This document shows positions 7,055 to 23,938 of a stretch of 56,908 nucleotides of DNA, in pieces (position 1 is the stretch's first letter; the number at the start of each line of letters is the position of its first letter). The position numbers and the translations under genes are program-made. Origin of the DNA: Bacillota bacterium (GTDB lineage Bacteria; Bacillota; Clostridia; Caldicoprobacterales; DTU083); NCBI GenBank assembly GCA_029777885.1, contig JAKORJ010000193.1, positions 1 through 56,908 of the forward strand, read 5' to 3'. Below the pieces are notes generated by a model. It saw only the letters and a program-made list of their open reading frames with translations, was not told the origin of the DNA and ran no database searches.

Positions 7055-9630
7055 AACGTTTGATATGCATCGTATTATGCCTGCTGGTGCTTGCTGCGGC
7101 TTTTTCGGCATCAGCAGCAGGACAAAACAACGAATCAGGAGGTAAGCTGCCGGTGTTGTCAGGAATGTTTGTCGCTCCTGAGCTGGTTACAGGGAAAAAC
7201 TCATGGGATCAGCAGGACTGGGACAGCGTTATGTCCCAGATGAAGGCTGTTGGAATAGATCAGGTCGTGATCCAGTATTCTGTCCAGTACTACAGCGATA
7301 TAGTAAAAAACCATTATTATGTACCCGGGTTTGAGCAAGCCGGTACAGACAATACAGGCAAGCAGCAGCAGATACCCTTTGCATTGAAGGCTGCTAAAAA
7401 GCATGGTGTAAAAATCTGGCTAGGCCTTCATATAGCGGAGGATGCGTGGTTCAGGGCTATGCCTGCAGGCTTCCAGGATCTCAACTTTCTAATAGACAGC
7501 GCTGAATATTCAAAAAAGATCTTTGATGATCTATGGAGCCAGTTCAAGGGCGAATATGCCGGTACGATCGCAGGCTGGTACCTGCCCTTTGAGTTCAACA
7601 ATGTAGACGTTAAGGGCGAAGCAAAGACAAGGCTTATCAATTATTTCTACAAGCCGCTTACCCAGCATATCAAGAGCGTGACCCCCGACAAGCTGATCAT
7701 GGTTTCGCCTCTTGTGTATGCTTCACTGACAGTGCCTCCAGCAAAGCAGGCAGTAGATGCATGGAAAGACCTACTGTACGATATCTGGGCCAATACACGG
7801 GTCGATGTGATAGCACCCCAGGATGGCTGCGGCTGGGAATCCACCATGAAGGAAACACTGGAGCCCTGGTACAAGGCCATGGACGAGGCCAGACGCCAGG
7901 CTCAGCCGGTGCGCGATTCAAAGAAGTACGGCCCGGCATTGGCATGGAACAACCCGGAAAGCTACAGCATGAACGGGACAGGCAACATGACAATCAAACG
8001 CCTGACGGACAATATGAAGGCAGTAGACAAATATGTTTCAGCCCACGTAAGCTTCAGTCTGCACTCACTGGCCTATCTTCCGGGTGACAAACCCGGGCAA
8101 AACAGCCCTGTAAACGAGCTGTACTACCGTGCTTACGAGTATGCAGTAATAAACAACAGGCTGTATACTCCCGGTACTCCCATAGCGGCGCCTGAAAACC
8201 TTGAAGCTAAAATCTTAAGTGGGGTGGATGTCCAGCTTTCCTGGGACAGGACAGAGGCTGTCGGTGACCAGATGCCGGTCGCAGGCTATGAAGTATGGCG
8301 CAAGAAGGCTGACGAGGATGACAGCCAATTTATAAGGATCAAGGAATTAAGCCAGCCATCCCGGGATGAGAAAAGGGTCATGGTAACGGATTATCAGACA
8401 GATCCGGGCACCTCTTATGTCTATGCGGTATATGCCTTTGATGCCACCGGCAACCGGTCCTCAAAGCCTGCTATTATAAATGCTGATATTGATGGATTTG
8501 GCATTGCCCTCAACCGCACCTACGGTGCTGATGTAACAGGAACATTGAATTTTACTGTAGACGGTTTCATAAATACATCGGTGAAATTCGGCAGCGCGGC
8601 CAAGCTTAAGGATAAGACCATAGGCCAGAGCATGGCCAGGTGGGACAATAACAACAGCTCCTGGACGGGCATCGAAAAAACCAGGCGCGAGGACCTGGGA
8701 AGATTCAACCTGAATATCGAAAACAATACGGGCAAAAAGCTGAGCTTTATATACATAAGCATGCTTAACCAGCCTACTTCCGATGTATATCTTCCCGAAA
8801 AAATCGATGTGATCGCTGATGGACGCCATATCGCTTCATATTATCCTTACAAGGAATACAGCAGTTCTCCGGTGGGGGCTATATGGATCCCGGTCGATTT
8901 AGGCTCCGCTGTCGATGCAAGGAAAATCACGCTTCAGTTTACACAGAAGTTTTACCGGATCATGCTGTCTGAGGTCAGGGTTTACGAGGGCAAGAGTACT
9001 TCTGCAGACAACGACGGGTATGTGGAGCCTGTAAGCCTTATTGAAGGCCAGCCGGTCATGATAACAGGATACCCGTCATCCCAGAACTTCAACCCCGACA
9101 GCCACTTCGGCGGTGTGACCAATACGGTCATAGATACACAAAAGGGCACGCTTGAAACCAGTTACCTGATCTACAAGGGCAACTATTCGACATACTTGCT
9201 GACCCGTGGAGCAGGTAAGGGGCCCCAGATCAGCTGGCATGAGGATACTGGCAATTCCGTATGGTTGAGGCTGTCTAACCTTGGCAGCACCTTTGAGTTG
9301 TCGGTGGACCTCAAAGCGCCAAGCACCATAAGGGCCATCGAGACCGAATGGCTGATCGACAGGGACGCAACGGTATTCCTGCCCAACTATATTGAGTTCT
9401 ACGGGGTGACCACAGACGGTGTAAATGAGCTGATCGGCAAGGCATACCGGCCTTCGGTTGCATTGCTGGATTTCGACAAGGCACCGTCGGAATCAAATAC
9501 CCATCGGATAGAGACCAAGGCTTACAGGATCATAGTTGACAGCAGCAAGCTGTATGAGAAGATCACGGCCAAGGTATTTGTTCCGTATCCGGCTAACACT
9601 TACTTCGTTAAAAATCTTATTGTGCATTGA
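7051..9630 (+). CDS. Secreted multidomain protein: DUF4434-like TIM-barrel, FN3, and two beta-sandwich (discoidin/CBM32-like) modules
   Basis: The ATG overlaps the upstream stop (ATGA), and a signal peptide MKRLICIVLCLLVLAAAFSASA follows. The N-terminus GMFVAPEL..WDQQDWDSVMSQMKAVGIDQVVIQYSV resembles DUF4434. The FN3 module shows PENLEAK..LSWDR..GYEVWRK..GTSYVYAVYAFDATGNRS. A C-terminal sandwich ends ..IMLSEVRVYEG. Confidence 0.6.
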   Translation: MKRLICIVLCLLVLAAAFSASAAGQNNESGGKLPVLSGMFVAPELVTGKNSWDQQDWDSVMSQMKAVGIDQVVIQYSVQYYSDIVKNHYYVPGFEQAGTDNTGKQQQIPFALKAAKKHGVKIWLGLHIAEDAWFRAMPAGFQDLNFLIDSAEYSKKIFDDLWSQFKGEYAGTIAGWYLPFEFNNVDVKGEAKTRLINYFYKPLTQHIKSVTPDKLIMVSPLVYASLTVPPAKQAVDAWKDLLYDIWANTRVDVIAPQDGCGWESTMKETLEPWYKAMDEARRQAQPVRDSKKYGPALAWNNPESYSMNGTGNMTIKRLTDNMKAVDKYVSAHVSFSLHSLAYLPGDKPGQNSPVNELYYRAYEYAVINNRLYTPGTPIAAPENLEAKILSGVDVQLSWDRTEAVGDQMPVAGYEVWRKKADEDDSQFIRIKELSQPSRDEKRVMVTDYQTDPGTSYVYAVYAFDATGNRSSKPAIINADIDGFGIALNRTYGADVTGTLNFTVDGFINTSVKFGSAAKLKDKTIGQSMARWDNNNSSWTGIEKTRREDLGRFNLNIENNTGKKLSFIYISMLNQPTSDVYLPEKIDVIADGRHIASYYPYKEYSSSPVGAIWIPVDLGSAVDARKITLQFTQKFYRIMLSEVRVYEGKSTSADNDGYVEPVSLIEGQPVMITGYPSSQNFNPDSHFGGVTNTVIDTQKGTLETSYLIYKGNYSTYLLTRGAGKGPQISWHEDTGNSVWLRLSNLGSTFELSVDLKAPSTIRAIETEWLIDRDATVFLPNYIEFYGVTTDGVNELIGKAYRPSVALLDFDKAPSESNTHRIETKAYRIIVDSSKLYEKITAKVFVPYPANTYFVKNLIVH

Positions 9631-9648
9631 GAAAGGGTGAGTGATCAC

Positions 9649-11118
9649 ATGAAAAAATCAAATGCAAGGATATTGCCACTGATCCTGGGGGTGCTTGTTC
9701 TTGTAAGCGCATGCGGAGGCCCGGCGGCACCCGGCGGCAGTCCGAGCCCGACTGCAACCGTTCCTGCCACTTCAGAGCCATCAGCCGAACCGACTCCGTC
9801 GGTGATATCGGAAATTAGCGGTACGGTCGTATATGCCGTAAGAGACAATGTGGCCGATCAGACAGAGGACCTGATCGATGTGTTCAACATGATGTATCCA
9901 AATATAACCGTTGAGCTTGAAGTGTTCAACGGTGACCTCAACAATACCTTGTCCGCCTGGGCGGCAGCAAAGACAATGCCTGATGTCGTGCTTGGCTGGG
10001 ACAATCTTTCCTTCTTTGCCCTCCAGGGCTGGCTGTACCCGCTGGATGAGTTTCTGGACAAGGATCCGGAAAAGGAGTATATTCACAAAACATCCCTGGA
10101 GTACTTCAAGTATGAGGGCAAAACGTATGCGGTACCGGCATGGCTGCAGTTTTCCACGATCGTCGTCAACCTGGACCTGTTGGAAGTTTTGAACATGGAT
10201 GCTCCTGATTATGACTGGACGATCGATGAGTTTGTAGCTATGGCAAAGAAAGCGACCACAAACCAGTATTCAGGCATAAATCACGTTGAATCCCTTGACC
10301 AGTATCTGATGCAGCAACTCTTGAAAACTGAGCATCAATGGGGATATGACCCGGAGACAAAGAAGTTCAACCTGACCGGCGGTGAATTTACGCAAGCTGT
10401 AGCGATAATAAATGACCTTCTGGCTTACCCGCAGCTGGTAGCTGATGCTATGCGGAACAATGATATTGTCAGCGCAGGCGGCCAGGATGACTATGCAAAG
10501 AAGTTCGGGTCAGGAGCTGACGGGCTTTCCGACGGGAGGATCCTTTTTGCCAACCAGAGCACATGGGATGACGAGTGGATGAATGCCCAGTTCAAGTTCA
10601 AATGGGACTATTATCCGATCCCGGCTCCTTCCAGGGAGGACTCCAAGCAGATCGTCCATGCAGATTATGGCATCATGCTGTCAACAGCAAAGGATCCTGA
10701 AGCGGCTTATGAGCTGCTGAAGTTCTTCACATTCGGCAAGGACGGGCTGCTGGCCAGGATGAAGCAGCAGGAAACGGGCAATTTCATAAACAACAGGTTT
10801 ACGATACCCCCGAACTCCCATCCTGAGGTGGCTGAGAAGTTCAATGCCTCCCCAAATGTGCCCGATGGTATAAAGTACATGTATAATAACATGGACAAAT
10901 CTGTGAAGGGCGATTTCAGCAAGGTCCTGCCCGATTACTGGAAGGTGGTCAATGATAATATATGGCAGGCTAAAGACCGTATCTCCAAGGGTGAGGATCC
11001 GGCAGCAGTCGCAAAAGAAGTCGAACAAAAAATCAACGAGCAGTTTGCCGAAACATATAAGATATTTTCAGAACAGATAAAAAAGATCCAGGAAGAGTTT
11101 GAGTCTTCCAGAGAATAA
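9649..11118 (+). CDS. ABC transporter extracellular solute-binding lipoprotein (carbohydrate type)
   Basis: ATG at 9649 follows AAAGGGTGAG. Lipobox LVLVSACGG, then a P/S/T-rich linker and family-1 SBP-like sequence (VVLGWDNLSFF, KTYAVPAWLQ). Confidence 0.85.
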   Translation: MKKSNARILPLILGVLVLVSACGGPAAPGGSPSPTATVPATSEPSAEPTPSVISEISGTVVYAVRDNVADQTEDLIDVFNMMYPNITVELEVFNGDLNNTLSAWAAAKTMPDVVLGWDNLSFFALQGWLYPLDEFLDKDPEKEYIHKTSLEYFKYEGKTYAVPAWLQFSTIVVNLDLLEVLNMDAPDYDWTIDEFVAMAKKATTNQYSGINHVESLDQYLMQQLLKTEHQWGYDPETKKFNLTGGEFTQAVAIINDLLAYPQLVADAMRNNDIVSAGGQDDYAKKFGSGADGLSDGRILFANQSTWDDEWMNAQFKFKWDYYPIPAPSREDSKQIVHADYGIMLSTAKDPEAAYELLKFFTFGKDGLLARMKQQETGNFINNRFTIPPNSHPEVAEKFNASPNVPDGIKYMYNNMDKSVKGDFSKVLPDYWKVVNDNIWQAKDRISKGEDPAAVAKEVEQKINEQFAETYKIFSEQIKKIQEEFESSRE

Positions 11119-11171
11119 ATCAGCTGATCAATAGCATTACTCTGATTCATAGAAGGGAATGGGTACTTAAG

Positions 11172-14009
11172 GTGAAAGCAAGGAAACTGTTTGCACTGGG
11201 CATGGCTCTTTTGTTGGCCCTATGTGTTGTAGCATGCCCAAATGCCGCTGCTTCTGTAAATGCTGATGCAACCATTAATGAAGCTGCTCCATATAGCTGG
11301 ACGGTAGTGGACGAAAGCATGGTAGCATACACAGTTGAAAACGAGGATGGCAGCCCGATGAAGCTTCTCCCCGGAAAGCCTGTCAGCCTGGATATACTTG
11401 TACCGGAAAGCGGATCATATCACTTGTTCCTTGAGTACCGTTCCCTCTCTGATATCGTATTGAAGAGCACGATGACCGTTGAGCTGGGAGATGCAGCCAC
11501 ACGCGTGGAGTTGTTTTCCTTATGGAAGGATGTATCCAAGGATTACCGGAAAGACCGGTTCGGCAATGAGCTGCCGGCTGAGCAGGAGGTCAGTGACGGA
11601 GTAGTTGCTGACTATGTAAAGGACCAGGCAGACGTATCGCAGCGGCCGTTTGTGTTTAAGCTGCCTGCAGGCGCCAGCAGACTGGTGCTGACCAGTGAAG
11701 ATACGGAGCTGGACTTGTACAGCGTGAAGCTTGTCAGGCGGGAAGATCCGCCTTCCTATGGTGAATACGCCGCCGATAAAGCTGCCCTGCCCCAGGGTAC
11801 GGAGCTTATAGTCATTGAGGGGGAGGATTACCGGTTAAAATCCGATTCCTATATCAGGGCAGGAGCCGAGCGCAATCCTGCTTTATATCCTTACGATTAC
11901 AGGGTAAAACGGCTCAATGTCCTGGATGGCTATTCCTTCTCCAGGGCGGGCCAGAAGGTCTTGTACAGCTTCAAAGTCAAGGAACCCGGGATATACTGCA
12001 TCAGCTTCCGTTATGCGCAGAACTACAAGGAGGGAGTGCCGGTCTACTGCAATGTCCGGATAGATGGCCACGAACTCTTCGATGAGATGCGCAGCGTGCC
12101 CTTCCCCTATACCGGCGTCAGGTATGCCAATAAGACAATCGGTACAGGCAATGGATATGCCGGTATTTACCTTGAGAAAGGGCACCATACCCTGACCCTC
12201 GAGCTGGATGGCACCCCGGTCGCTCCTTATATAAAAAGACTGAGGGAAATACTTGCGGATATCAATGGAATCGGTCTGGATATCCTGAAAATAGCAGGGC
12301 GCAATGCCAGTGTGCACAGGACATGGGATGTGGGAAGCTACCTCCCTGGCGTCATTGACCAGCTAGAAGGCTATAGGGAGGAGCTTTTGGATATTTACTC
12401 TCAGATAGGCAGGCTGCAGGACGGACGCCCGGCCGCGGCGCTGAACCTCAAGCTCGCGGCTGACAATCTGGGCAAGCTCCTTAAAAACCCAAGCAAGCTG
12501 CCGGGCAGGCTCTCGCTTTTGAGCGAAGGCTCCGGATCGGTGGCCCAGATGCTTGCCGATCTGGTAGACCGGCTGACATATCAGAACCTGTCTGTTGACC
12601 GCATATATGTACATGGAGCCGGAAAGACGCTGCCCAAGGCTGAAGCAGGGCTTTTTACCAGGCTTGCGGACGGCATCAGGCGTTTTTTCCATGCCTTGTT
12701 CTCTGGGGAAAGACAGGAGGACCATGACGGAAAGGTGCTGAAGGTATGGGTGAATCGGCCGATACATTATGTAGAGATTATGCAGGCCATGGCCGACGCT
12801 TCATATACTTCGGAAAAAGGCATCAATGTCAGATTTTCCGTAATGCCCAGTGAACAGAAAATAATACTGGCGAATGCAACCGACTCAGCCCCTGATGCAG
12901 TATTGGGGGTCGGAGCCGGTCTCCCCTTTGACCTTGGGATCAGGGGAGCTGTGGCAGACCTTATGCAATTCGAGGATTTCCCTTCATACATACAGAAGGA
13001 GTACAACATACAGTCCCTGGTGCCCTATGTGTACGGCGGCAAGGTGTTTGGAGCAACGGAAACCCAGGAATTCTATGTGCTGATGATGCGGACCGACATC
13101 ATGGACAAGCTGAACCTAGAGGTGCCCAGGACCTGGGATGATGTGGCCGATATGATGCCGATACTGCAAAGACACTCCATGAACTTTTACCTGCAGCTTT
13201 CAGGCTATAGCGGGACCAAGCCCCTGTATACCACCGTGCCCTTCATACAGCAGGCAAACGGCAGCCTGTACAGCAGTGACGGCCTTGCCACTGCGATCAA
13301 CTCGCCGGAGTCTTTAAGAGGGTTCGAGGCACTGACGGATCTATACAGGATATATAGTGTAACTCCTGTAGTATCAAGCTTTTACAACAGCTTTCGTTAC
13401 GGGCAGATACCTATAGGGATAGCTTCTTTTACAGATTATGTGAAAATTCGCAGCGCTGCCCCTGAAATTGCGGGTAATTGGGCGATAGCGCCCGCCCCGG
13501 GATTCATTGGCAAGGACGGAGAGATCAGAAACGGTACAACCGGTGCTGCTACTGCCTGCATCATTATGGAGCAGTCCGACATGAAGGAAGAGGCATGGGA
13601 CTTCCTAAAGTGGTGGCTGTCATCCGAGGTGCAGATAAAATTCGGCAATACCCTGCAGACCACTTATGGACCGGATTACCTGTGGAACAGCGCAAATATT
13701 GAGGCTTTTAAACAGCTGTCTTTCCCTGATGAGGACAAAGCAGTGATCCTGGACCAATGGGGACACATGGAGGAGATATACCGTCATCCGGCCTTATACG
13801 CAATAGAACGGGAGCTCAGCAACGCCTGGACCGATGTTGTGTTGAATGGCGTTCCGGTGCGTATAGCCCTCGATGATGCCGCCCTGGAGATAAACAGGGA
13901 ATTTGCGCGGAAGCTTGTGGAGTTCGGATACATGGAAAGAGATGGTACGGTGAAGAAAACATATGATCTCAAATCCATAGAAGAGATCATAAATGGGGTG
14001 AGGCCATGA
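11172..14009 (+). CDS. Giant (945-aa) solute-binding lipoprotein with N-terminal beta-sandwich/CBM-like modules
   Basis: GTG start and lipobox LALCVVAC. Two CBM-like N-terminal segments carry the size/shape motifs ESGSYHLFLEY..LYSVKLV and EPGIYCISFRY..GHHTLTLEL. The C-terminal ~430 aa are SBP-like (KVLKVWVNRP...SAPDAVLGV...GKVFGATETQEFYVLMMRTD). Confidence 0.75.
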   Translation: MKARKLFALGMALLLALCVVACPNAAASVNADATINEAAPYSWTVVDESMVAYTVENEDGSPMKLLPGKPVSLDILVPESGSYHLFLEYRSLSDIVLKSTMTVELGDAATRVELFSLWKDVSKDYRKDRFGNELPAEQEVSDGVVADYVKDQADVSQRPFVFKLPAGASRLVLTSEDTELDLYSVKLVRREDPPSYGEYAADKAALPQGTELIVIEGEDYRLKSDSYIRAGAERNPALYPYDYRVKRLNVLDGYSFSRAGQKVLYSFKVKEPGIYCISFRYAQNYKEGVPVYCNVRIDGHELFDEMRSVPFPYTGVRYANKTIGTGNGYAGIYLEKGHHTLTLELDGTPVAPYIKRLREILADINGIGLDILKIAGRNASVHRTWDVGSYLPGVIDQLEGYREELLDIYSQIGRLQDGRPAAALNLKLAADNLGKLLKNPSKLPGRLSLLSEGSGSVAQMLADLVDRLTYQNLSVDRIYVHGAGKTLPKAEAGLFTRLADGIRRFFHALFSGERQEDHDGKVLKVWVNRPIHYVEIMQAMADASYTSEKGINVRFSVMPSEQKIILANATDSAPDAVLGVGAGLPFDLGIRGAVADLMQFEDFPSYIQKEYNIQSLVPYVYGGKVFGATETQEFYVLMMRTDIMDKLNLEVPRTWDDVADMMPILQRHSMNFYLQLSGYSGTKPLYTTVPFIQQANGSLYSSDGLATAINSPESLRGFEALTDLYRIYSVTPVVSSFYNSFRYGQIPIGIASFTDYVKIRSAAPEIAGNWAIAPAPGFIGKDGEIRNGTTGAATACIIMEQSDMKEEAWDFLKWWLSSEVQIKFGNTLQTTYGPDYLWNSANIEAFKQLSFPDEDKAVILDQWGHMEEIYRHPALYAIERELSNAWTDVVLNGVPVRIALDDAALEINREFARKLVEFGYMERDGTVKKTYDLKSIEEIINGVRP

Positions 14010-14905
14010 AGAGCATAAGAGGACTGGCGGACCGTTATTCACATTGGGTACTGCTGATGCCCTTTCTGGTGTTTTTTACACTTTTTATACTTCTGCCGGT
14101 CATATTTGCCGTGCTCCTTTCCTTTACCCGCTATGATTCCATTCAGAGCCCGGTTTTTGTAGGCCTGCAGAATTACCTTGACATATTTACACATGATACA
14201 GTGTTTATGCAGAAGGTATTGCCGAATACGGCGACCTACGCCCTTATAGTCGGACCCGGAGGCTATATACTGTCATTCCTCCTGGCCTGGGTCATAGCTC
14301 AGATGCCTCGCATACCCCGTACGGTGCTGGCTATCGTGCTGTATTCGCCTTCGCTTCTCGGATCGGTTGCCCTGTCAACTATATGGGGAGTCCTGTTCTC
14401 GGGGGACAGGATGGGGTACCTGAACAATATACTGTATTCGCTGGGCTTGATAAATGAACCGGTTGCCTGGCTTACGTCTGCACAGACCCTGCTGCCCATA
14501 ATGATCTTTGTCGGCCTGTGGTCCAGCATGGGGGTGGGCTTCCTTGCTATGCTGGCAGGCATACTCAATGTAAATGCCGAGCTTTATGAAGCTGCTTACC
14601 TGGACGGGGTAAAAAACAGGATACAGGAGATCTATTATGTAACGATCCCGCTCATAAGGCCCCAGATGCTGTTCGGGGCGATAATGGCACTGGTAAATAC
14701 CTTTAATTCTCCAGGACTGGGCGTTGCATTGTCAGGCTCTAATCCAACCCCGGACTATGCAGGCCAGCTCATAGTCAATCATATGGATGATTATGGATTC
14801 CTGAGGTATGAGATGGGCTATGCTGCAGCCTTGTCGGTGGTACTGCTGACCTTTGTGTGGATAATGTCTAAGGCGGCTTATCGTATGTTCGAAGACAGGG
14901 ACTAA
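14006..14905 (+). CDS. Carbohydrate ABC transporter permease (MalF-like)
   Basis: 4-nt overlap (ATGA) with the upstream gene. Six predicted TM segments and an EAA-like loop (ELYEAAYLDGVKNRIQEIYYVTIPLIRP). Confidence 0.9.
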   Translation: MKSIRGLADRYSHWVLLMPFLVFFTLFILLPVIFAVLLSFTRYDSIQSPVFVGLQNYLDIFTHDTVFMQKVLPNTATYALIVGPGGYILSFLLAWVIAQMPRIPRTVLAIVLYSPSLLGSVALSTIWGVLFSGDRMGYLNNILYSLGLINEPVAWLTSAQTLLPIMIFVGLWSSMGVGFLAMLAGILNVNAELYEAAYLDGVKNRIQEIYYVTIPLIRPQMLFGAIMALVNTFNSPGLGVALSGSNPTPDYAGQLIVNHMDDYGFLRYEMGYAAALSVVLLTFVWIMSKAAYRMFEDRD

Positions 14906-14918
14906 GGGAGGGATGATC

Positions 14919-15788
14919 ATGAAATGCTGCATTAAAATCGGACCGGAACGTTTTCATGCCGACCAGATCAAATTCTTTATAATGATTTCTCCCTTTGCAG
15001 CCGTGATGCTGCTTCCCATCATATATGTCGTATTTCATGCCTTCAAACCGGTGGATGAGCTCTTTGCATTTCCGCCCAGGTTTATCACCCTGCGGCCTTC
15101 GCTTGAAAATTTCACCCGCCTTCTCCATACAGCGAATTCCTCCAACTATCCGGCAGCCCTGTATATTTTCAACAGCATCCTATCAACCCTGCTGACCGTT
15201 GTCGCAACCCTGTTGATCAGCGCTTCGGCGGGCTATGTGCTGTCCAAGAAGGAGTTTAAAGGAAAAAGGCTGATCATGAATATGAACCAGGCTGCCCTTA
15301 TGTTCGTGCCGGTAGCTGTTGCCGTACCAAGGTACATGATAATAAAAGGTCTGGGCCTGATGGACAGCTTTTTGTCTCACATTTTTCCCTTGCTGGCCAT
15401 GCCTGTAGGCTTATTTTTGGTCAAGCAGTTCATTGACCAGGTCCCGTCATCATTGCTTGAGGCAGCCAGGATAGACGGCTGTTCGGATTATGGGGTGCTG
15501 TTTCGTATAGTCATGCCGATCATCAAGCCGGCATTGGCCACCGTAGCGATCCTGTCCTTTCAGTCTGCCTGGAACAGCGTTGAGGCTTCCCAGATGTTCA
15601 TAGAAAATGAAAAACTGAAGACCTTTGCATATTACATGACAACGGTGACATCTCCCTCGGGCAGCTCTGTAGCAGGCCAGGGGATGGCAGCAGCTGCCGT
15701 CCTGATAATGGTAGTGCCAAATATTATACTGTTCATCATTATGCAGTCCCGGGTAATGAATACGGTTGCCCATTCAGGGATCAAATAG
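14919..15788 (+). CDS. Carbohydrate ABC transporter permease (MalG-like)
   Basis: ATG at 14919 lies 7 nt after AAGGGAGG, while the in-frame ATG at 14913 is too close to the RBS. EAA loop LLEAARIDGCSDYGVLFRIVMPIIKP. Confidence 0.88.
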   Translation: MKCCIKIGPERFHADQIKFFIMISPFAAVMLLPIIYVVFHAFKPVDELFAFPPRFITLRPSLENFTRLLHTANSSNYPAALYIFNSILSTLLTVVATLLISASAGYVLSKKEFKGKRLIMNMNQAALMFVPVAVAVPRYMIIKGLGLMDSFLSHIFPLLAMPVGLFLVKQFIDQVPSSLLEAARIDGCSDYGVLFRIVMPIIKPALATVAILSFQSAWNSVEASQMFIENEKLKTFAYYMTTVTSPSGSSVAGQGMAAAAVLIMVVPNIILFIIMQSRVMNTVAHSGIK

Positions 15789-15799
15789 GGGGTGGGGAC

Positions 15800-17836
15800 A
15801 TGTTTACTGCAAAGCGCCTGTTTATAATGCCTATTTGTGCCATCCTGCTTGCCTGCCTGGCAGTAAATACAGCTGCCGCCCGTATCCCTCAAACCGGCAA
15901 TTCAACCTCGATCACATACACATTATCATCCGACGGCAGCTGGTTGCGTACCCAGGATGCCTATCTGCCGGGCGAGATCCTGTTCCAGGATGACCCCCTG
16001 TGGCAGCCTGAGGATGTGTATGTATATGGCAATTGCCTGTATATTGCTGCCGCAGGCAACGGCTATGTCGTTGCATATGACCTTGATACCAGGAAGACAA
16101 GGATATATGGAGAGGGGACCCTCAATACTCCCACAGGCATATATGTGACCGGCCGGCAGGAGCTTTATGTGGCTGACTCGGGCTTTTCCAAGGTATTTGT
16201 GTTTGACGCTGAAGGCAAACTGCTTAGTGAATACGACAGGCCTGATGAAATGACATTTGGCGCCCAGGCACAATTTAAGCCTAAAAAGCTTGTGGTTGAT
16301 GAGTCAGGCGTCATGTCCATCGTTTCCGAGGGCTCTTATGACGGGGTGATCCAGCTTGGAGCAGAGGGTGAATTTCTGGGATACTTCGGATATAACTCGG
16401 TGCCAATGACCCTGCTTGAGCTGCTGCAGGACCGCTTTTTTACAGAAGAGCAGAAAAAACAGCTGTTCAACAGAATACCCCTGACCTTTTACAATCTCGC
16501 GTCCGATCCGGATGGTATTATATACACCATAACCCAAAGTGCTGTCGGTAATGCAATAAAAAAGCACAATATATCAGGTGTCAACATAATAAAGCATCAG
16601 ATGATCGATGAAAAAAACTTCACTGACATTGCGGTAGGGCCGACAGGACAGATCTATGCTGTGACACAGACAGGCCTGATATTTGAATATGACAATGACG
16701 GCAACCTCCTGTTCTCATTTGGCGGACAGGCTATATCCAGCGAACGCAGCGGCCTGCTCACAATAGCATCAGGTATAGCTGTCGATGATGAATATAACCT
16801 CTATGTGCTCGACAAGGAAAGAGGGCTGGTCCACACCTATGTGCCAACTGCTTTTGCAAATCTGGCCCATGAGGCGATCAATGAATATCGCCAGGGTAGT
16901 TATACATCCAGCAGGGACAAGCTGAATATGCTGCTTATGCTGGCAGGCAATGCCCGGTTTATTTACTATTACCTGGGCAAAAACGAGCTCCAGCTGAGAA
17001 ACCACCAGGCAGCTGCAGTGTTCTTCAGACAAGCCGGCGACCGCAGCGGATATTCGGAAGCCTTCTGGGAGATCAGAAACGATGTCATTAACGCCGTATT
17101 GCCGTGGATGTTTGCCGTATTTTTGGCAACAGTCCTGTTCAACCTTGTCCGTCGGTTGTGGAAAGGAAAACAGGCAGCACATCAAGGAACGCGGTTCCTT
17201 GTGAAAAGCCGTATCCTCAGTGACCTTATGTTCGGATTCAATGTACTAAGGCATCCCATAGACAGCTTTTACGAGGTCAAGACCGGGGCACGTGGGAGCA
17301 TATGGTCAGCAGTGATACTATACCTCCTGGCTTTCGGGGCTTTTGCCTTTGACTACCTGGGCAGGGGCTTTGCTTACAGCCTTAGGACGACAGAAAACAC
17401 CTCGCCCCTTTACGTCATACTTTTGTTCTTCCTGCCGGTTGCCCTGTTTATCATTTGCAGCTATATGGTCAGCGAACTGCATGACGGAAAGGGATGGTTC
17501 ATGACCGTATTTATAGGAATGTCATATGCCCTGGTGCCCTGGATATGTTTTCTTCCTGCGGTAACGGTGATGACCCACGTCCTTGCCCTGAACGAATCCT
17601 TTCTGATCACATTTTCAAGCCTGCTCGTATATGCCTGGACGACAGTGCTTGTGATACTGGCTATCCGTGAGATCCATGAATATGAGCTGCACCAGGTGCT
17701 GGGCAACATCATGCTGACGTTTTTTATGATGGTAGTGGTAATATTTGCATTTTCTATCATAGGGATGTTCTGGGATAAGGCCATAGAAATAGCCTCATCA
17801 ATCACAAGAGAGGTGAAGTATCGTGTCGGGCATTAG
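15800..17836 (+). CDS. Signal peptide + NHL-repeat beta-propeller + TPR-like segment + C-terminal Yip1-type polytopic membrane domain
   Basis: NHL-like blades appear as NTPTGIYVTGRQELYVADSGFSKVFVFDAEGKLL and ASGIAVDDEYNLYVLDKERGLVHTY. The C-terminal ~200 aa have five hydrophobic segments and a Yip1-like lead-in (NVLRHPIDSFYEVKTGARGSIWSAVILYLLAF). Confidence 0.65.
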   Translation: MFTAKRLFIMPICAILLACLAVNTAAARIPQTGNSTSITYTLSSDGSWLRTQDAYLPGEILFQDDPLWQPEDVYVYGNCLYIAAAGNGYVVAYDLDTRKTRIYGEGTLNTPTGIYVTGRQELYVADSGFSKVFVFDAEGKLLSEYDRPDEMTFGAQAQFKPKKLVVDESGVMSIVSEGSYDGVIQLGAEGEFLGYFGYNSVPMTLLELLQDRFFTEEQKKQLFNRIPLTFYNLASDPDGIIYTITQSAVGNAIKKHNISGVNIIKHQMIDEKNFTDIAVGPTGQIYAVTQTGLIFEYDNDGNLLFSFGGQAISSERSGLLTIASGIAVDDEYNLYVLDKERGLVHTYVPTAFANLAHEAINEYRQGSYTSSRDKLNMLLMLAGNARFIYYYLGKNELQLRNHQAAAVFFRQAGDRSGYSEAFWEIRNDVINAVLPWMFAVFLATVLFNLVRRLWKGKQAAHQGTRFLVKSRILSDLMFGFNVLRHPIDSFYEVKTGARGSIWSAVILYLLAFGAFAFDYLGRGFAYSLRTTENTSPLYVILLFFLPVALFIICSYMVSELHDGKGWFMTVFIGMSYALVPWICFLPAVTVMTHVLALNESFLITFSSLLVYAWTTVLVILAIREIHEYELHQVLGNIMLTFFMMVVVIFAFSIIGMFWDKAIEIASSITREVKYRVGH

Positions 17837-20102
17837 AGCAATAAAGCTATCCGTGATTGCGGGGCTGATACCGGCCTTGCTGCTGATATCAGGCTGCAGC
17901 TATTCATTGCAGCAGGATACAGGCTTGTCAGCAGGGATGCTTGTGAGCGGCAGTCTTGAACTAAGCTCCAGCCGCCATACCAAGCCGGAGCCTGCTTCGG
18001 AAGAGATTCCGGGGTTGAGCCTGGACGGGTTTGAAAAGAAACTGGAAAACGAACGATTTGAGCTATACTTCCGGGGCGAGACCGGGGCTATCAGGCTGAA
18101 GGATAAACGCAGCGGCTATGTATGGGGATCGATAGCTGAAGATAAGCCTTTCAATCTGAACAGGACCTGGTCAGCAATAGCCAATTCTGTCATAGCTATA
18201 GATGTATATGATGTCAACGGGGCGCTGAAAACCCTTGGCGCAGGAAAAGACGGGTTGATCCTGTCCGTTCATGGAAACAGGATCGAGGCAAAAGTGCATT
18301 GGCCTGAACAGCAGATAGAATTGAAATTTGAAATGGAGCTGACAGCAGAAGGGCTCAGGCTCAGGCTGGATGATGAGTCCATACGTGAAATAGGGGAATT
18401 TAGCCTGGGTGCCGTTTATTTCCTTCCCTTTTTCGGTTCAACGATAGGGGATGAAAAGCAAGGCTATATTTTTGTTCCAGACGGCTGCGGCGCGCTCATC
18501 CGCTTTACAAAGCCAAGGGGATACCTGCAGGGCTTTTCAAAGAGAGTGTATGGCAACGACTTTGGGATAGACAGCCTGTCTGCTATAGAAGACCTGGGGG
18601 CAAACCGTGTAAATGCCTTTGCCATGGATGAGGAAACCGTTTCTTTGCCAGTGTTCGGCGTCGTGCATGGCACAAAGCAGAACGCATTTCTGGCTGTAAT
18701 CGAGCAGGGTGAATCCTATGCAGAGATACAGGCTAATCCCGCAGGCATTACAACGGACTACAACAGGGTGACCGCCAGGTTTGTGTACCGTCAGAAATAT
18801 GAACAGCCGGTAAGCAAGGCAGGCGCCGGCGTCCAGGTGCTGCAGAAAAACAGAAATGAGGTCAATCCGGTTATAAGCTACTGCTTTTTGACCGGCGAAA
18901 ACGCGGATTATGTCGGTATGGCCAAGGCATACCGCAGGTATCTTGTTGACAAGGGGATCTTGGAGAAACAGCAGCCTAAGGATGGAGATATTGCTTTAAG
19001 GCTCGATTTCCTTGCCGCGGATATCAAAAAGGAGTTCATTGGGACTTCAGTGCTGAAGATAACAGGCATTGATGAAATAGAGCAACTGGTAAGGAAGCTT
19101 CATGACATGGGGATCACCAACCTGGAGGTCTCCTTGTCCGGATGGCAGGATGGCGGGCTAAACGGTCACAGGAAGACCCGGATTAGTACTGATACAGTCT
19201 ATGGCGGGATATCGAGCCTGGGCGACCTCAAGCAGCTGGTTGGACCCGACGGCAAGCTCAGCCTGTACCTAAGTCCGTTTACCGCCCTGAAGGAACAGCT
19301 CGATCTAAGGAGCGAGGCTGCGATAACAGTATCGCAAAATGTAGTTAAAATTAAAACCGATGATGAGTCTTACCCCTACCTTTATTTCGTAAAGACCAGC
19401 AAGGCGCTGGATACGCTTGAAAACCAGGTATCTGCGATGGCAGCGGCCGGCTATGCCAATTGGGTATTGGATGATGTCGGATATCTCTTATACGGCGAGT
19501 ATCTGCAGAACAAGACTATTTCCCGGGAAGAGGCCCGGCTGTTGGTGCAGCAGGCAGTGGCCGATCTAGCGTGCAGGTACGGCAGGTTGGAAATTGTCCG
19601 TCCCAATCAGTACCTGCTTGAATATACCGATGCCTACCTGTCAGCGCCTATAGTCAGCAGTCAGCTGTTGTTTGAGACCGATACAGTCCCCTTTCTGCAG
19701 ATAGTGCTATCGGGCTATATAACGATGTATGCTCCCTACACTAATCTAAGCCTGTATTCCCGAGCTGACATCCTCAGGCAGATAGATTACAACATGCTTC
19801 CCTCATTCCTGCTTACAGGGAAGACCAATTATGAGCTAAAACGTACGGCTTCAGCTCATATCCAATCCTCATGGATAGAACACTGGGATGAGTATATTGT
19901 TGAAGTCTATGAAATGATGAATGAAATCATGTCAAAGATAAGGGGACAGGCATTCGTAGACAGGATCGTGCTTGAAACCGGCCTTGTAAAAAATATATAT
20001 GAATCAGGTACAGTATATATCAACTACAATTCAACTGACAAACAGGCCGACGGGCTGTCTATCCCGGCTATGTCAGCGATTTATGCGGAAGGCAGGAAGT
20101 GA
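17823..20102 (+). CDS. Large lipoprotein, DUF5696-like (function unknown; candidate glycan-active enzyme)
   Basis: 14-nt overlap with the upstream gene and lipobox LLISGCSY. The motif GYIFVPDGCGALIRF and the overall size recall DUF5696 proteins. From memory, these neighbour Yip1 and large SBP genes in Paenibacillus and Clostridia. Confidence 0.5.
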   Translation: MSGIRAIKLSVIAGLIPALLLISGCSYSLQQDTGLSAGMLVSGSLELSSSRHTKPEPASEEIPGLSLDGFEKKLENERFELYFRGETGAIRLKDKRSGYVWGSIAEDKPFNLNRTWSAIANSVIAIDVYDVNGALKTLGAGKDGLILSVHGNRIEAKVHWPEQQIELKFEMELTAEGLRLRLDDESIREIGEFSLGAVYFLPFFGSTIGDEKQGYIFVPDGCGALIRFTKPRGYLQGFSKRVYGNDFGIDSLSAIEDLGANRVNAFAMDEETVSLPVFGVVHGTKQNAFLAVIEQGESYAEIQANPAGITTDYNRVTARFVYRQKYEQPVSKAGAGVQVLQKNRNEVNPVISYCFLTGENADYVGMAKAYRRYLVDKGILEKQQPKDGDIALRLDFLAADIKKEFIGTSVLKITGIDEIEQLVRKLHDMGITNLEVSLSGWQDGGLNGHRKTRISTDTVYGGISSLGDLKQLVGPDGKLSLYLSPFTALKEQLDLRSEAAITVSQNVVKIKTDDESYPYLYFVKTSKALDTLENQVSAMAAAGYANWVLDDVGYLLYGEYLQNKTISREEARLLVQQAVADLACRYGRLEIVRPNQYLLEYTDAYLSAPIVSSQLLFETDTVPFLQIVLSGYITMYAPYTNLSLYSRADILRQIDYNMLPSFLLTGKTNYELKRTASAHIQSSWIEHWDEYIVEVYEMMNEIMSKIRGQAFVDRIVLETGLVKNIYESGTVYINYNSTDKQADGLSIPAMSAIYAEGRK

Positions 20103-21061
20103 TGAGAGAGATGAGCCATTTTAGGTCAAACCTGTTATCTAGGAGACAGAAGAAAGCTGCAGCCGGAGCCAAATGTTCAACCGATGAAGTCAGAAGGCCA
20201 TGGCTCAGCAGTATGCAGGCAAAAGAGGCTGTGAGCGGCTACTTGTTTTTCTTGCCCTGGCTGGCAGGCTTTCTGATATTTACGATCTATCCTTTTGTAT
20301 ACTCGGTTCTGCTGAGCTTCAGTGAGGTCATCCTTTCTCCTGCCGGGATCAAAAGGTCGTTCATAGGTCTTAAATGGTATCGTGAAGCCCTGACTGCGGA
20401 TGCGACCTATCCTGTAAGCCTGTTGGATACGCTGAGATTTATAGTGCTATCCACACCCATGATCACAGTTGCTGCATTGCTGCTTGCCTTGCTGCTCAAC
20501 GGCAGGTTCAGGGGCAGGACTTTTTTCCGGGCGGTATTTTTCTTTCCGGTGATCATAATAAGCGGGCCTGTGATAGCAGAGCTATTAAGCACCAAGGCTG
20601 CTGTTGTGATAAATCCGTCGGATTATGCTGTTTATGAGTTTGTCCGGACCCTGCCAGGGTTCCTGTCGATGCCCCTCCTTTATATATTTGACAATATTGT
20701 GCTGATACTATGGTTTTCCGGAGTACAAGTCATTATTTTCCTGGCTGGCATCCAAAAAATCGGACAGCCTATCCGGGAGGCAGCATCCATCGACGGTGCT
20801 TCAGCATGGCAGATGTTCTGGAAGATCTACCTGCCCTTCCTAAAGCCGCTGGTTCTGCTGAACACGATTTATACCATAGTGATGCTGTCGGGCTTTTCAA
20901 GCAATGCAGTGAATGGGGAGATCGTAAACAAAATGACACTGACAGGGAAAGTATATGGGTATTCATCGGCTATGTCATGGATCTATTTCATCTTGCTGAT
21001 TATACTGCTTGGCATAACCTATCTGATATTCAGCGAAAGAAAGGGAAGGGCGGGCTACTGA
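20099..21061 (+). CDS. Carbohydrate ABC transporter permease (second pair, MalF-like)
   Basis: It overlaps the upstream stop. The start is ambiguous among GTG 20099, ATG 20102 and ATG 20111. EAA loop IREAASIDGASAWQMFWKIYLPFLKP. Confidence 0.85.
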   Translation: MMREMSHFRSNLLSRRQKKAAAGAKCSTDEVRRPWLSSMQAKEAVSGYLFFLPWLAGFLIFTIYPFVYSVLLSFSEVILSPAGIKRSFIGLKWYREALTADATYPVSLLDTLRFIVLSTPMITVAALLLALLLNGRFRGRTFFRAVFFFPVIIISGPVIAELLSTKAAVVINPSDYAVYEFVRTLPGFLSMPLLYIFDNIVLILWFSGVQVIIFLAGIQKIGQPIREAASIDGASAWQMFWKIYLPFLKPLVLLNTIYTIVMLSGFSSNAVNGEIVNKMTLTGKVYGYSSAMSWIYFILLIILLGITYLIFSERKGRAGY

Positions 21062-21951
21062 TGATTTCAAGACGCAGAATCCGTGTGTTTGCTGGGCTTC
21101 AGCTTAGATACTTCCTATTGATCGGCATAGGCCTTGTATTTCTATATCCTGTTGCCTATATGCTGGTCAATTCAGCCAAGAGCCTGCCTGACCTGGTCAA
21201 TCCCACTATAGAGTGGATACCTTCTACCTTGTACCTGGACAATTACAGCAGGGCGTTGAAGGTGCTGGATTACAGGCATACCCTGATCGTTACGGTCCTG
21301 CTTGTCGCCATGGAAACCCTGCTCCAGACCTTTTCCTGCTCCCTGGCCGGATATGCCCTGGCGCGGTACAGGATGCCTTTTAAACGGTTCTGGATGGCAA
21401 TGGTCGTTATTACCTTCCTGATACCTTCCCATGTGACCCTGATACCAAAATACATAATGTTCTCAAGCTACCAGCTGGTAGGCAGCCCCCTGTCTGTCTT
21501 GCTGCCGGCCTCCCTGGGACAGGGCATCAACAGTACTGTATTTGTTTTGATTTTCTATCAGTTTTTCTCGTCGTACCCCAGATCATTCGATGAAGCGGCC
21601 CAGATAGACGGAGCCGGCAGGCTAAGGGTTTTTTTCCGGATAGCCCTGCCTGTGTGCGTCCCCGCGATAGTAGTCTCATTGCTCTTTTCCTTTGTATGGT
21701 TCTGGAATGAGACCTATACTTCGGGCTTGCTTCTTGGCTCAGGCTTAAGGACATTGCCCATGAAGCTTCAATCCTTTGTGGAGGAGTACAGTCGGTCTTT
21801 CAGTTCCGGTAGTGACGGTGTTAACAGGATCAATGAGAGCATCCGCTCTGCTGCGACCCTGCTGGTTATAACGCCTCTCCTCATGCTGTATTTGGTTATG
21901 CAGCGCTATTTCATAGAGGGAGTGGAGTCATCGGGGATAACAGGAGAATAG
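21061..21951 (+). CDS. Carbohydrate ABC transporter permease (second pair, MalG-like)
   Basis: ATG at 21061 overlaps the upstream TGA by 1 nt. The track ORF (20710-21951) extends upstream out of frame over the previous gene. EAA loop FDEAAQIDGAGRLRVFFRIALPV. Confidence 0.85.
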   Translation: MISRRRIRVFAGLQLRYFLLIGIGLVFLYPVAYMLVNSAKSLPDLVNPTIEWIPSTLYLDNYSRALKVLDYRHTLIVTVLLVAMETLLQTFSCSLAGYALARYRMPFKRFWMAMVVITFLIPSHVTLIPKYIMFSSYQLVGSPLSVLLPASLGQGINSTVFVLIFYQFFSSYPRSFDEAAQIDGAGRLRVFFRIALPVCVPAIVVSLLFSFVWFWNETYTSGLLLGSGLRTLPMKLQSFVEEYSRSFSSGSDGVNRINESIRSAATLLVITPLLMLYLVMQRYFIEGVESSGITGE

Positions 21952-21986
21952 CAGTATGCAGAAACGGAAGGGACTTGGATCGGACA

Positions 21987-23039
21987 ATGGACAAGTGCTA
22001 TGGTGTTGTACTTATAGGATGCGGGCATATAGGAGAGCAGCATATTGAGGATATATATTATCGCGACAATGTGGATATAGTTGGGGTCGTGGATGTAAAT
22101 GAGGAGCTGGCACGCACCTTTGCGCGAAAATACAATGCAAAGGCCTATGGAACGGACTATCTGCCCTTTCTCAGAATGAAGGAAACAGATATCGTTATAA
22201 TAGCAACTTACGCTGACAGCCATCTAGGGATATTGCAGGACTGCCTGCGATATAAAAAGCATGTGCTGTGTGAAAAACCCATTGCTTCCAGCCTGGCGGC
22301 AGGGAAAAGGTTCTACTCCCTGGTAAAGGGTACTCAGCAGAAGGTGCTGGTTGCCCATATACTGAGGCATAACAAATCATACCAGAAGGTCGCTGAGCTC
22401 ATACAAAGCGGTGCCATAGGCAGGCTTAGGCTGATACGAATGGTCCAGAATCATCATGCGATAAACTGGCAGAGATATAAAAGGCTTATGGCTGACTGCC
22501 CTCCCATAGTGGACTGTGGTGTTCACTATATCGATGTTATGCAGTGGTTTTCGGGCTCGCGGGTGGTCGAGGTAAGCGGGATAAGCTGCAGGCTTGACAG
22601 TGATGTTGATGTAGACAATTACGGTGTTATAAACGTAAGGTTTGCTAACGGGTGTATCGGATACTATGAAGCCGGATGGAGCAGAAACCTGGGATCATGC
22701 AATGTCAAAGAGTTTATTGGCGATAGGGGACGGATCAGCCTTACCCTCAGGGAGAACAGGCCTGCCAACCGGGAGGAGGGCGACTTGATAACCCTGTATA
22801 GCAGTGATACCGGAGAGTACAAAACGATCAATATCCAGTCAAAATATAACGATATGTATGCGCAGCTGTCCGCGCTGATCGACATGATCGAATCCAATGC
22901 ACCGGCGAATCCGGATATAGACGATGTCTATAGTGCCTTTTACACTGCAATGGTGGCAAAAGAGGCAATTGAGAACAAATGCTGTTACCGGATACAGCCT
23001 TTTGATGTGCGCACTGCTGTTGGCCACTTAAGCATTTGA
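21987..23039 (+). CDS. Gfo/Idh/MocA-family oxidoreductase
   Basis: ATG at 21987 follows GGAAGGG. Motifs YGVVLIGCGHIGEQH, HVLCEKP and IVDCGVHYIDVMQW. Confidence 0.85.
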   Translation: MDKCYGVVLIGCGHIGEQHIEDIYYRDNVDIVGVVDVNEELARTFARKYNAKAYGTDYLPFLRMKETDIVIIATYADSHLGILQDCLRYKKHVLCEKPIASSLAAGKRFYSLVKGTQQKVLVAHILRHNKSYQKVAELIQSGAIGRLRLIRMVQNHHAINWQRYKRLMADCPPIVDCGVHYIDVMQWFSGSRVVEVSGISCRLDSDVDVDNYGVINVRFANGCIGYYEAGWSRNLGSCNVKEFIGDRGRISLTLRENRPANREEGDLITLYSSDTGEYKTINIQSKYNDMYAQLSALIDMIESNAPANPDIDDVYSAFYTAMVAKEAIENKCCYRIQPFDVRTAVGHLSI

Positions 23040-23083
23040 AATATACAAAATATAAACTATTAATGCGTAAAGGAGAGGATATT

Positions 23084-23938
23084 ATGAGCAATTTTAAAAT
23101 CGGGATCATAGCAGACGGATTGCGGCTTCCGTTCAGAGAGAGCATGGAGAAATGCGCGCAAATGGGCGCTGATGGAGTTCAGCTTTATGCCGTGAGCGGA
23201 GATATGGCACCCGAGAACATGACCCGCTCCGATCTCGTTGAGAAGCGTTCCATCATAAGGGATTGCGGCCTGGAGGTTTCCGCCCTTTGCGGTGACCTGG
23301 GGGGGCACGGATTTGCTGTTTTGGAGGAAAATGCCTGGAAAATCGAGAAATCAAAGCGCATTATTGATCTTGCCCTGGAGTTCGGCTGCAATATCGTTAC
23401 GACTCATATCGGGGTGATCCCGGCAGACAAGGCCGGAGCAAGGTATGGGATCATGCAAGAGGCCTGCAACGAGCTGGCTGAATATGCGCACAAATGTGGT
23501 GCATACTTAGCTATTGAAACAGGGCCTGAACCGGCCACTCATCTGAAAGAGTTTTTAGACAGCCTGAGCAGCAAAGGCCTTGCTGTCAACATGGATCCCG
23601 CTAATCTGGTAATGGTCACCGGTGATGATCCGGTACAGGCAGTATATACACTGAAGGAATATATCGTACATACTCATGCCAAGGATGGAATAATGTTACA
23701 AAAGACTGACCCGCAGGTCATCTACGACTTTTTCGCTGAAGGCGGTATAGGCGATCTACGGCTGGAGGACTATTTCAAGGAGATGCCCCTGGGACAGGGG
23801 AATGTGGACTTTGGCAGGTATCTGGCTGCGCTAAAGGATATTGGATATAGCGGCTACCTGACTATTGAAAGAGAGCTTGGCAGCGATCCGGAAGCTGATA
23901 TACGGGCGGCAGTTGATTTCCTGAGAAAGATGATATAA
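23084..23938 (+). CDS. Sugar phosphate isomerase/epimerase-family (xylose-isomerase-like TIM barrel) protein
   Basis: RBS AAAGGAGAGG. Family motifs are GADGVQLYA, HIGVIP, LAIETGPE, NMDPANL, HTHAKDG and GYSGYLTIERE. Confidence 0.85.
   Translation: MSNFKIGIIADGLRLPFRESMEKCAQMGADGVQLYAVSGDMAPENMTRSDLVEKRSIIRDCGLEVSALCGDLGGHGFAVLEENAWKIEKSKRIIDLALEFGCNIVTTHIGVIPADKAGARYGIMQEACNELAEYAHKCGAYLAIETGPEPATHLKEFLDSLSSKGLAVNMDPANLVMVTGDDPVQAVYTLKEYIVHTHAKDGIMLQKTDPQVIYDFFAEGGIGDLRLEDYFKEMPLGQGNVDFGRYLAALKDIGYSGYLTIERELGSDPEADIRAAVDFLRKMI

Follow-up and report, generated by a model that had tools for sequence, protein, structure and literature searches.

What kind of system is encoded when a Yip1-family membrane protein and a protein of unassigned family DUF5696 sit between the permease genes of a sugar importer? 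We addressed this question for a 56,908-nucleotide (nt) stretch of DNA from a clostridial member of the Bacillota (contig JAKORJ010000193.1, assembly GCA_029777885.1; hereafter the window). An initial annotation had singled out five genes at 11172-20102 as a stoichiometrically co-expressed core module and read them as a surface capture, processing, and import machine. All five open reading frames (ORFs) were present at these coordinates on the + strand. The boundaries of the module were wrong, however, because the five genes are the middle of a conserved unit of eight, 9637-21951, that includes two binding proteins and two permease pairs. From first to last, its genes encode the small binding protein, the giant binding protein, permeases 1 and 2, the NHL-TPR-Yip1 protein, the DUF5696 protein, and permeases 3 and 4. 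We consider it probable, if well short of certain, that this unit is one copy of an eight-gene cassette, modular and widespread, for the uptake of oligosaccharides derived from glucans.

The eight genes lie on the + strand and follow each other closely. The small solute-binding protein (9637-11118; 493 amino acids [aa], likely start ATG at 9649, lipobox VSAC) is encoded 53 nt upstream of the giant solute-binding protein (11172-14009; 945 aa, signal peptide with a VVAC lipobox), which shares a 4-nt ATGA overlap with permease 1 (14006-14905). Permease 2 (14913-15788) follows after 7 nt, or 13 nt if a second ATG is used, and 11 nt separate it from the gene for the NHL-TPR-Yip1 membrane protein (15800-17836; 678 aa), which in turn overlaps the DUF5696 gene (17823-20102; 759 aa, lipobox LISGC) by 14 nt. 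Beyond the five flagged genes, the DUF5696 stop codon overlaps the start of permease 3 (20099/20102-21061) in the sequence GTGATG, and the permease 3 stop overlaps the ATG of permease 4 (21061-21951) by 1 nt (TGATG) at 21061. The longest ORF for permease 4 begins at 20710; this start was rejected in favor of 21061, which agrees with the gene call in contig L001. The tight packing of the five genes was thus borne out at every junction. The stoichiometric co-expression derived from it does not follow, since short gene overlaps of such size are ordinary in operons. Because the genes from 652 to 23938 form a continuous, tightly packed run, the region looks like one long operon. Promoter-like and terminator-like sites within 3000-22900 were no more frequent than in shuffled sequence, and NCBIfam supplied no specific name for any cassette protein.

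Conservation of the unit was assessed with a DUF5696 profile built from 60 homologs and scanned against bacterial contigs representing one genome per species. At least 586 relatives were recovered, and neighborhoods were analyzed for the best 80 loci by searching the window proteins against their six-frame ORFs. Gene order was counted in the 67 loci with full flank coverage. All eight genes occurred in order in 60 of these, in Bacillota, Thermotogota, and Chloroflexi, and the remaining seven were without only a detectable small binding protein, a homolog of which directly precedes the giant binding protein in the other 60. Wherever flank was available in the 80 loci, the giant binding protein, two permeases, NHL/Yip1 protein, and DUF5696 protein were colinear. 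The NHL-Yip1 gene was always immediately upstream of the DUF5696 gene, and permease 3 was present in all loci with sufficient downstream flank. Even the overlap between the NHL-Yip1 and DUF5696 genes recurred in four of seven independent gene-called loci (8, 17, 14, and 20 nt in L084, L085, L086, and L087, respectively). The hosts were Lachnospiraceae, Oscillospiraceae, Acutalibacteraceae, Erysipelotrichaceae, many Bacillaceae and Paenibacillaceae, Halanaerobiales, Thermotogota (Thermosipho, Fervidobacterium, and Kosmotogaceae), and Anaerolineae. The recurrence in Firmicutes put forward in the initial annotation is therefore real and stronger than claimed, but it is not confined to that phylum.

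Look-ups seeded with the NHL/Yip1 protein in Clostridium thermarum and Pseudothermotoga returned the same cassette, so that it was recovered from both accessory proteins as seeds. DUF5696 relatives at only 26-30% identity (in Paenibacillus eucommiae, Cohnella, and a metagenome contig) were also encoded within the cassette. The P. eucommiae locus (L088:2016-15633) is a variant with the small binding protein placed after permease 4 and a MalK-type ATPase gene directly upstream of the giant one. At 50% identity the DUF5696 family falls into about 4,000 clusters (E<=1e-30), and at 90% identity the NHL-TPR-Yip1 family forms at least several hundred; a search with an NHL/Yip1 profile found 533 proteins, with lengths of 640-705 aa among the 120 listed. 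Two assemblies carried two cassette copies each (L005 and L077 in CAJTVB01; L025 and L034 in CALWLN01). Because the copies of one genome fall in different DUF5696 clades, they suggest paralogous specialization for different glycans. Some loci had unusually long stop-to-stop ORFs: in an Anaerolineae locus (L039:10001-12088) the DUF5696 ORF was 1123 aa and the permease 3 ORF 514 aa, and long permease ORFs were likewise seen in Cohnella loci L046 and L062. These may be open frames in GC-rich DNA or real extensions.

The genes around the cassette point to its substrates. Flank ORFs of the 80 loci were clustered by BLAST and cluster representatives were annotated. Glycoside hydrolase (GH) family 3 enzymes and LacI regulators were each found in 27 loci, and GH35-like proteins in 23, with a representative whose best Protein Data Bank (PDB) match was a beta-1,2-glucosyltransferase (7vkw, E 3e-53). 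PF10091 proteins occurred in 22 loci (the window's own PF10091 protein matches the GH144 endo-beta-1,2-glucanase 5gzh at E 1e-44), and the 1,2-beta-oligoglucan phosphorylase of family GH94 (SOGP) in 19. Less frequent were GH16 (14 loci), GH161 beta-1,3-glucan phosphorylase (seven loci; a 1055-aa flank protein matched PDB 9qqk at E 4e-241), GH31 (seven), and GH30 (six). About 35 loci had a full or near-full beta-1,2-glucan enzyme set around the cassette, the same set that accompanies a gluco-oligosaccharide-binding ABC transporter in described beta-1,2-glucan clusters (PMC8861115). The combination of GH16, GH161, GH30, and GH3 corresponds to beta-1,3-glucan clusters described in passages of another report (PMC6484121). 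Judged from these predicted enzymes, the flanking genes set the substrate class of the cassette, with three putative subtypes: a beta-1,2-glucan subtype in many Bacilli, Chloroflexi, and some Thermotogota; a beta-1,3/1,6-glucan subtype in Erysipelotrichaceae, Lachnospiraceae, and Thermotogota; and a GH31-linked subtype in Oscillospirales. A neighbor-joining tree of DUF5696 clustered loci by flank type and not by taxonomy, the Fervidobacterium loci being split between the beta-1,2 and beta-1,3 groups. The cassette is therefore best described as a predicted reusable core with substrate-specific enzymes varying around it.

Four permeases and two binding proteins form the transport part of this core. 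Permease 1 is MalF/UgpA/GlcT-like, with six predicted transmembrane segments, the EAA loop EAAYLDG, and a GlcT-like match in NCBIfam, and permease 2 is MalG/UgpE/GlcU-like (EAARIDG). Permease 3 is MalF-like (EAASIDG) and permease 4 MalG-like (EAAQIDG). All four have the EAAxxDG motif and Pfam domain BPD_transp_1, the domain score of permease 3 lying under the Pfam cut-off (23.3 versus 26.4 bits). Permeases 1 and 3 are paralogs (26% identity), as are permeases 2 and 4 (26% identity, E 1e-24). Because permeases 1 and 3 are MalF-like and 2 and 4 MalG-like, all with an EAA loop, two complete membrane dimers are encoded; together with the two binding proteins, they make up two CUT1-type importer sets. 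No strict Walker A or LSGGQ/E motif was found anywhere in the window, and no ATPase was among the annotated common flank clusters of the 80 loci; the MalK-type gene of P. eucommiae, directly upstream of the cassette, was found in that one relative. Because the window has no ATPase gene, the ATPase is expected to be encoded in trans. A shared ATPase acting in trans is usual for CUT1-type importers, according to passages in PMC6484121.

The giant binding protein matched Pfam SBP_bac_1 and SBP_bac_8 (E 6e-18); SBP_bac_1 is confined to aa 536-821 of 945 (the C-terminal 40%), and aa 1-530 of the window protein had no Pfam match. In the AlphaFold2 model (predicted local distance difference test [pLDDT] 87.7), residues 51-189 and 212-345 fold as beta-sandwiches, 348-510 as a helical bundle, and 522-917 as the binding domain. 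The doubled size of the protein had been put down to N-terminal beta-sandwich modules. Two sandwiches are indeed modeled, and weak CBM_35 matches occurred in 10 of 26 homologs (best E 1e-5), but the helical domain of about 160 aa contributes as well. The fold is that of MalE-like binding proteins, with a CUT1-type binding domain. Listeria innocua Lin1841 was the best PDB sequence match (5ysb, E 9e-12), and the best fold matches were Tlet_1705 (cycloisomaltooligosaccharide binding), GacH, Lmo0181 (cycloalternan), and Lin1841. Shorter starts assigned by gene callers on identical contigs (861 or 896 aa) were rejected, as the 945-aa GTG start yields a signal peptide and homologs are 940-1030 aa long. 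The small binding protein had no Pfam match at E<=0.1. By phmmer, it matched family-1 sugar-binding proteins in the PDB, best of all chain 22hh_A (E 8e-21) and also the trehalose/maltose-binding protein 1eu8 (E 3.5e-8). The first of these, titled 'Extracellular solute-binding protein family 1' and represented by five entries, has a ligand that might hint at the substrate class.

The first of the two proteins encoded between the permease pairs combines a predicted NHL-type propeller with a Yip1 membrane domain. Pfam Yip1 (PF04893) matched aa 480-649 at 38.2 bits (cut-off 28.6). NHL reached 29.5 bits over the whole protein (cut-off 20), with a single repeat matched (aa 108-135) that by itself was under the cut-off. 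Six repeat units are visible by eye, and the NHL domains of TRIM2, TRIM3, and Brat in the PDB matched at E 8e-9 to 1e-7. An N-terminal signal segment precedes the propeller region (about aa 40-350), which is followed by a helical region, a transmembrane segment at 429-447, and the Yip1 domain with five transmembrane segments at 499-655; TPR families matched the helical region in many homologs. This layout predicts that the NHL-type beta-propeller is extracytoplasmic. A comparable case is YknW of the Bacillus YknWXYZ system, a Yip1-family protein that modulates assembly of the YknXYZ ABC transporter (PMC4887032). Both are multi-pass Yip1 proteins encoded with an ABC transporter, and YknW is required by its transporter. 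YknWXYZ, however, is a MacB-type exporter with a membrane-fusion protein, and YknW is described without an extracellular domain (PMC4887032), whereas the cassette protein is encoded with importers and joins a TPR-like region to its predicted propeller. Our literature search found no paper on DUF5696 or PF18952 and, among the papers it listed on bacterial Yip1 proteins, none on a sugar importer.

The second protein matched DUF5696 (PF18952) over its full length (E 2e-160; 535.7 bits versus a cut-off of 25.6; profile positions 10-611 of 612) and no other Pfam family at E<=0.01. Its AlphaFold2 model (pLDDT 91, predicted template modeling score [pTM] 0.91) has a (beta/alpha)8 barrel flanked by one beta-sandwich at the N terminus and another at the C terminus. 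Foldseek matched this model to GH129 structures 5opq (E 4e-31) and 5wzn (E 5e-23), and then to GH101, GH36, and GH31. A 60-sequence profile likewise recovered GH129 chains from the PDB sequences at E 2e-7 and 1e-6 over partial regions, a weak if significant relationship, where the single sequence found nothing meaningful. The predicted three-domain architecture of DUF5696 is that of GH129, known from the Bifidobacterium bifidum alpha-N-acetylgalactosaminidase NagBb and a Zobellia galactanivorans 3,6-anhydro-D-galactosidase (template modeling [TM] score on target 0.70-0.73), at an identity of 12-13%. Because the protein has a GH129-like glycosidase fold, the processing role proposed in the initial annotation is plausible, as is enzyme activity. 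The catalytic residues, however, could not be confirmed, as the conserved nucleophile and acid/base pair of GH129 could not be located in DUF5696.

Taken together, these features suggest a division of labor. The giant binding protein would capture long or bulky oligosaccharides through its CBM35-like modules and binding cleft, DUF5696 would trim or open the captured glycan at the membrane surface, and the NHL-TPR-Yip1 protein would serve as a membrane scaffold that holds the giant binding protein and DUF5696 beside the permeases. The two importers might then take up products of different size.

Several observations weigh against reading the locus in this way. No subtype among the three has flanks like the window's own (DUF4434, CBM35, beta-helix, and Gfo/Idh/MocA proteins). 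The window has a single marker of beta-1,2-glucan use, a GH144 homolog 17 kb downstream (38615-39844; PDB 8xul at E 8e-57 and 5gzh at E 1e-44), and it has neither SOGP nor GH3. The top structural relatives of DUF5696 (GH129, GH101, GH36, and GH31) cleave alpha-type linkages, and the GH129 substrates are alpha-linked, whereas the genomic context and flank enzymes indicate beta-glucans. Conserved gene order is a sign of co-function or co-inheritance, not of a complex. The 80 loci are the best of at least 586, with very divergent contexts sampled by three extra look-ups, and ORF starts are uncertain, which affects the lipobox counts given below. Within DUF5696, the conserved acids are D220, D246, D620, and D/E655, of which D220, D620, and D/E655 are nearly invariant across 239 aligned sequences. 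The best conserved, D220, lies in the N-terminal domain. Positions 549 and 559, which follow strand beta4 at the expected site of a GH129/GH31-type nucleophile, were inspected in about 35 of the 239 sequences, and no more than about 60-75% of these have an acid there.

With no invariant acid at the beta4 nucleophile strand and the best acid in the N-terminal domain, DUF5696 may be non-catalytic or use another mechanism. A non-catalytic, glycosidase-like DUF5696 would act with the NHL propeller in binding surface glycans and handing them over, in a SusE/F-like role that involves no processing. The distribution of its invariant residues over three domains (the PDGxG and PVFG loops, N641, Y726, and Y735) suits a binding surface or protein interface as well as an active site, and the protein is kept across loci whose flank enzymes imply different linkages. 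Yet the acids themselves are strongly retained: D220, which sits in the PDGxG loop, in 235 of 239 sequences, an aspartate or glutamate at D620 (after barrel strand 6) in 221, and an acidic residue at D/E655 in all 239. The fold family consists of active enzymes, and the alignment of the beta4 region is gap-rich, which may scatter a true nucleophile. We regard a purely binding role as somewhat unlikely, while giving it more weight than any of the other alternatives considered here.

How the proteins are held at the cell surface bears on whether they work together. In other genomes, the simple pattern heuristic used for lipoboxes detected one in 54 of 64 small binding proteins, against just 10 of 69 for the giant binding protein and three of 80 for DUF5696. 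With a lipobox in each, the window copies of the last two are thus atypical for their families; the description of the DUF5696 protein as a lipoprotein holds for the window copy, with its LISGC motif, and not for the family. Lipid anchors being scarce in these two families, most giant binding proteins and DUF5696 proteins of bacteria that have no periplasm would need an uncleaved signal anchor or a partner to stay at the membrane. This scarcity favors a scaffold role for the NHL-TPR-Yip1 protein.

Physical association of the NHL/Yip1 and DUF5696 proteins with the transporter is nevertheless something we infer. The genes might instead be co-located without forming a complex, as two independent CUT1 importers, a free extracellular glycosidase (DUF5696), and a separate NHL/Yip1 protein for a task such as sensing or surface binding, under shared regulation and with a shared substrate. 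In Gram-positive polysaccharide loci, transporter and enzyme genes routinely share an operon; genes in operons commonly have short overlaps, and flank enzymes vary freely around the cassette. Moreover, in passages of Kuhaudomlarp et al., neighboring GH161 and GH94 clusters in Acholeplasma, each with ABC components, are described as two clusters (PMC6484121). Against such independence, the genes for two predicted extracytoplasmic proteins, the Yip1-anchored beta-propeller and the GH129-like fold protein, invariably separate the two permease pairs, whether in Bacilli, Thermotogota, or Chloroflexi and whatever the substrate type, whereas loose enzyme-transporter associations are normally shuffled over such distances. 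Nor is it easy to see how most giant binding proteins and DUF5696 proteins, which have no lipid anchor, would work at a monoderm surface without something to retain them. We think co-location without a complex unlikely.

At the other extreme, the eight proteins and a shared ATPase would form one surface machine, a twin ABC importer docked to the Yip1-anchored propeller and the GH129-like protein. For bacteria with a toga or without a classical outer membrane, it would be the counterpart of the Bacteroidota SusCD 'utilisome', and it would serve large or cyclic beta-glucans such as cyclic beta-1,2-glucans. DUF5696 would then be a new family of glycoside hydrolases or transglycosylases, for example one that opens alpha-1,6-cyclized beta-1,2-glucans, and Yip1 an adaptor of ABC importers. 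This picture is speculative, and in its entirety we hold it to be no likelier than co-location.

The surroundings of the cassette in the window are variable context outside the conserved unit. Upstream, 2620-9630 on the + strand encodes an AraC regulator followed by proteins with, according to Pfam, CBM35 (3576-5576), a beta-helix and CBM35 (5678-7054), and DUF4434 and fn3 (7051-9630). Only the closest relatives, L004 and L005, share the DUF4434 gene with the window, and the AraC, CBM35, and beta-helix genes had no match in any of the 80 loci. PDB sequences gave no informative match for the DUF4434 and beta-helix proteins, and a literature search for DUF4434 found only an unrelated mention. 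Downstream, also on the + strand, 21975-23938 encodes a Gfo/Idh/MocA oxidoreductase and a xylose-isomerase-like TIM-barrel protein (Pfam). The identical contigs L001 and L003 have this context too, and homologs of both genes lie downstream on the opposite strand in L004 and L005. In the DUF5696 tree, the window copy falls in a small clade with Lachnospiraceae and Acetatifactor loci, and SOGP adjoins the cassette in its relative L005. Gfo/Idh/MocA oxidoreductase genes at 652-2602 and within 21975-23938 bracket the locus, and one of them is followed by the TIM-barrel gene. We take this pairing to resemble oxidative (3-keto) glycoside-cleavage modules, and the imported sugar could presumably follow that route.

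The sugar locus is followed by a membrane protein (23997-25082) that has a rhomboid domain and, at its C terminus, a Big_5 Ig-like domain. Its presence, together with the fact that known bacterial Yip1 proteins accompany exporters, could be taken to mean that the cassette is not a nutrient importer but recycles or exports a glycan of the cell's own envelope, with the rhomboid protein and other neighbors active in envelope maintenance. Binding-protein-dependent permeases with EAA loops are importers, however, and the flanks of the cassette encode catabolic enzymes, phosphorylases, and LacI or AraC regulators. The rhomboid neighbor was seen only in the window, L001, and L003, which have an identical DUF5696 protein, and was absent from the flank lists and gene calls of the other loci. 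An envelope role is thus highly improbable.

The window also has carbohydrate genes elsewhere. In the region 35517-39844, two ORFs of 538 and 452 aa without a significant Pfam match precede the GH144 homolog. A LuxR-type regulator adjoins another binding protein at 40892-43930 on the - strand, and further carbohydrate genes, a GH2 enzyme and a GH38 alpha-mannosidase, lie at 29581-31332 and 49177-52326.

Among characterized systems, the L. innocua importer formed by Lin1841 and Lin1842/1843, in a cluster with SOGP and GH3, is one of the nearest to the cassette. It too is a CUT1-type importer that depends on a binding protein and has the gene for its ATPase at another site. Among solved structures, Lin1841, a binder of beta-1,2-gluco-oligosaccharides, comes closest in sequence to the C-terminal half of the giant binding protein (E 9e-12; fold TM score 0.84 at 22% identity), and many cassette loci adjoin the enzyme set of the Listeria system (SOGP, GH3, GH144, and a GH35-type transferase). 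The Listeria system has a binding protein of about 400 aa (chain length 397) and a single ABC transporter, with, to our knowledge, a single permease pair and no Yip1 or DUF5696 partner. In the window cassette there are two binding proteins, of which one is longer by about 520 N-terminal residues, along with two permease pairs and the two additional conserved proteins.

Polysaccharide utilization loci of Bacteroidota encode SusC/D, surface glycan-binding proteins, and surface glycosidases. They follow the same logic of surface capture, processing, and import as a conserved core amid substrate-specific enzymes; the proteins and the membrane architecture are entirely different, so the likeness is one of analogy only. 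Another comparison is with the GH161/GH94 beta-1,3-glucan loci of Firmicutes and Acholeplasma, in which passages of Kuhaudomlarp et al. (2019, PMC6484121) describe ABC permeases, unaccompanied by an ATPase gene, together with GH161, GH16, GH3, and GH30, the enzymes that also flank the cassette in the beta-1,3/1,6-glucan subtype. Those passages treat the transporter parts as ordinary and make no mention of genes between the permeases. In Acholeplasma, they report two permeases without a binding protein beside a second ABC cluster (PMC6484121); as far as these passages go, such loci may be this cassette read as two clusters.

The cassette at 9637-21951 is thus a sugar importer locus of the CUT1 type in which the core is duplicated and joined by a pair of putative accessory proteins, unprecedented and deeply conserved, and it spans gut, soil, marine, and hot-spring bacteria. 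As a practical matter, it is a marker from which the use of glucans by Lachnospiraceae, Oscillospirales, and Erysipelotrichaceae of the gut can be predicted. If DUF5696 and NHL-Yip1 are working parts of the importer, they would represent a new architecture for glycan capture in bacteria without SusC/D and would give a bacterial Yip1 protein a function on an importer. They would also point to a possible new glycosidase family tied to beta-1,2- and beta-1,3-glucans, with relevance to symbiosis, pathogenesis, and diet.

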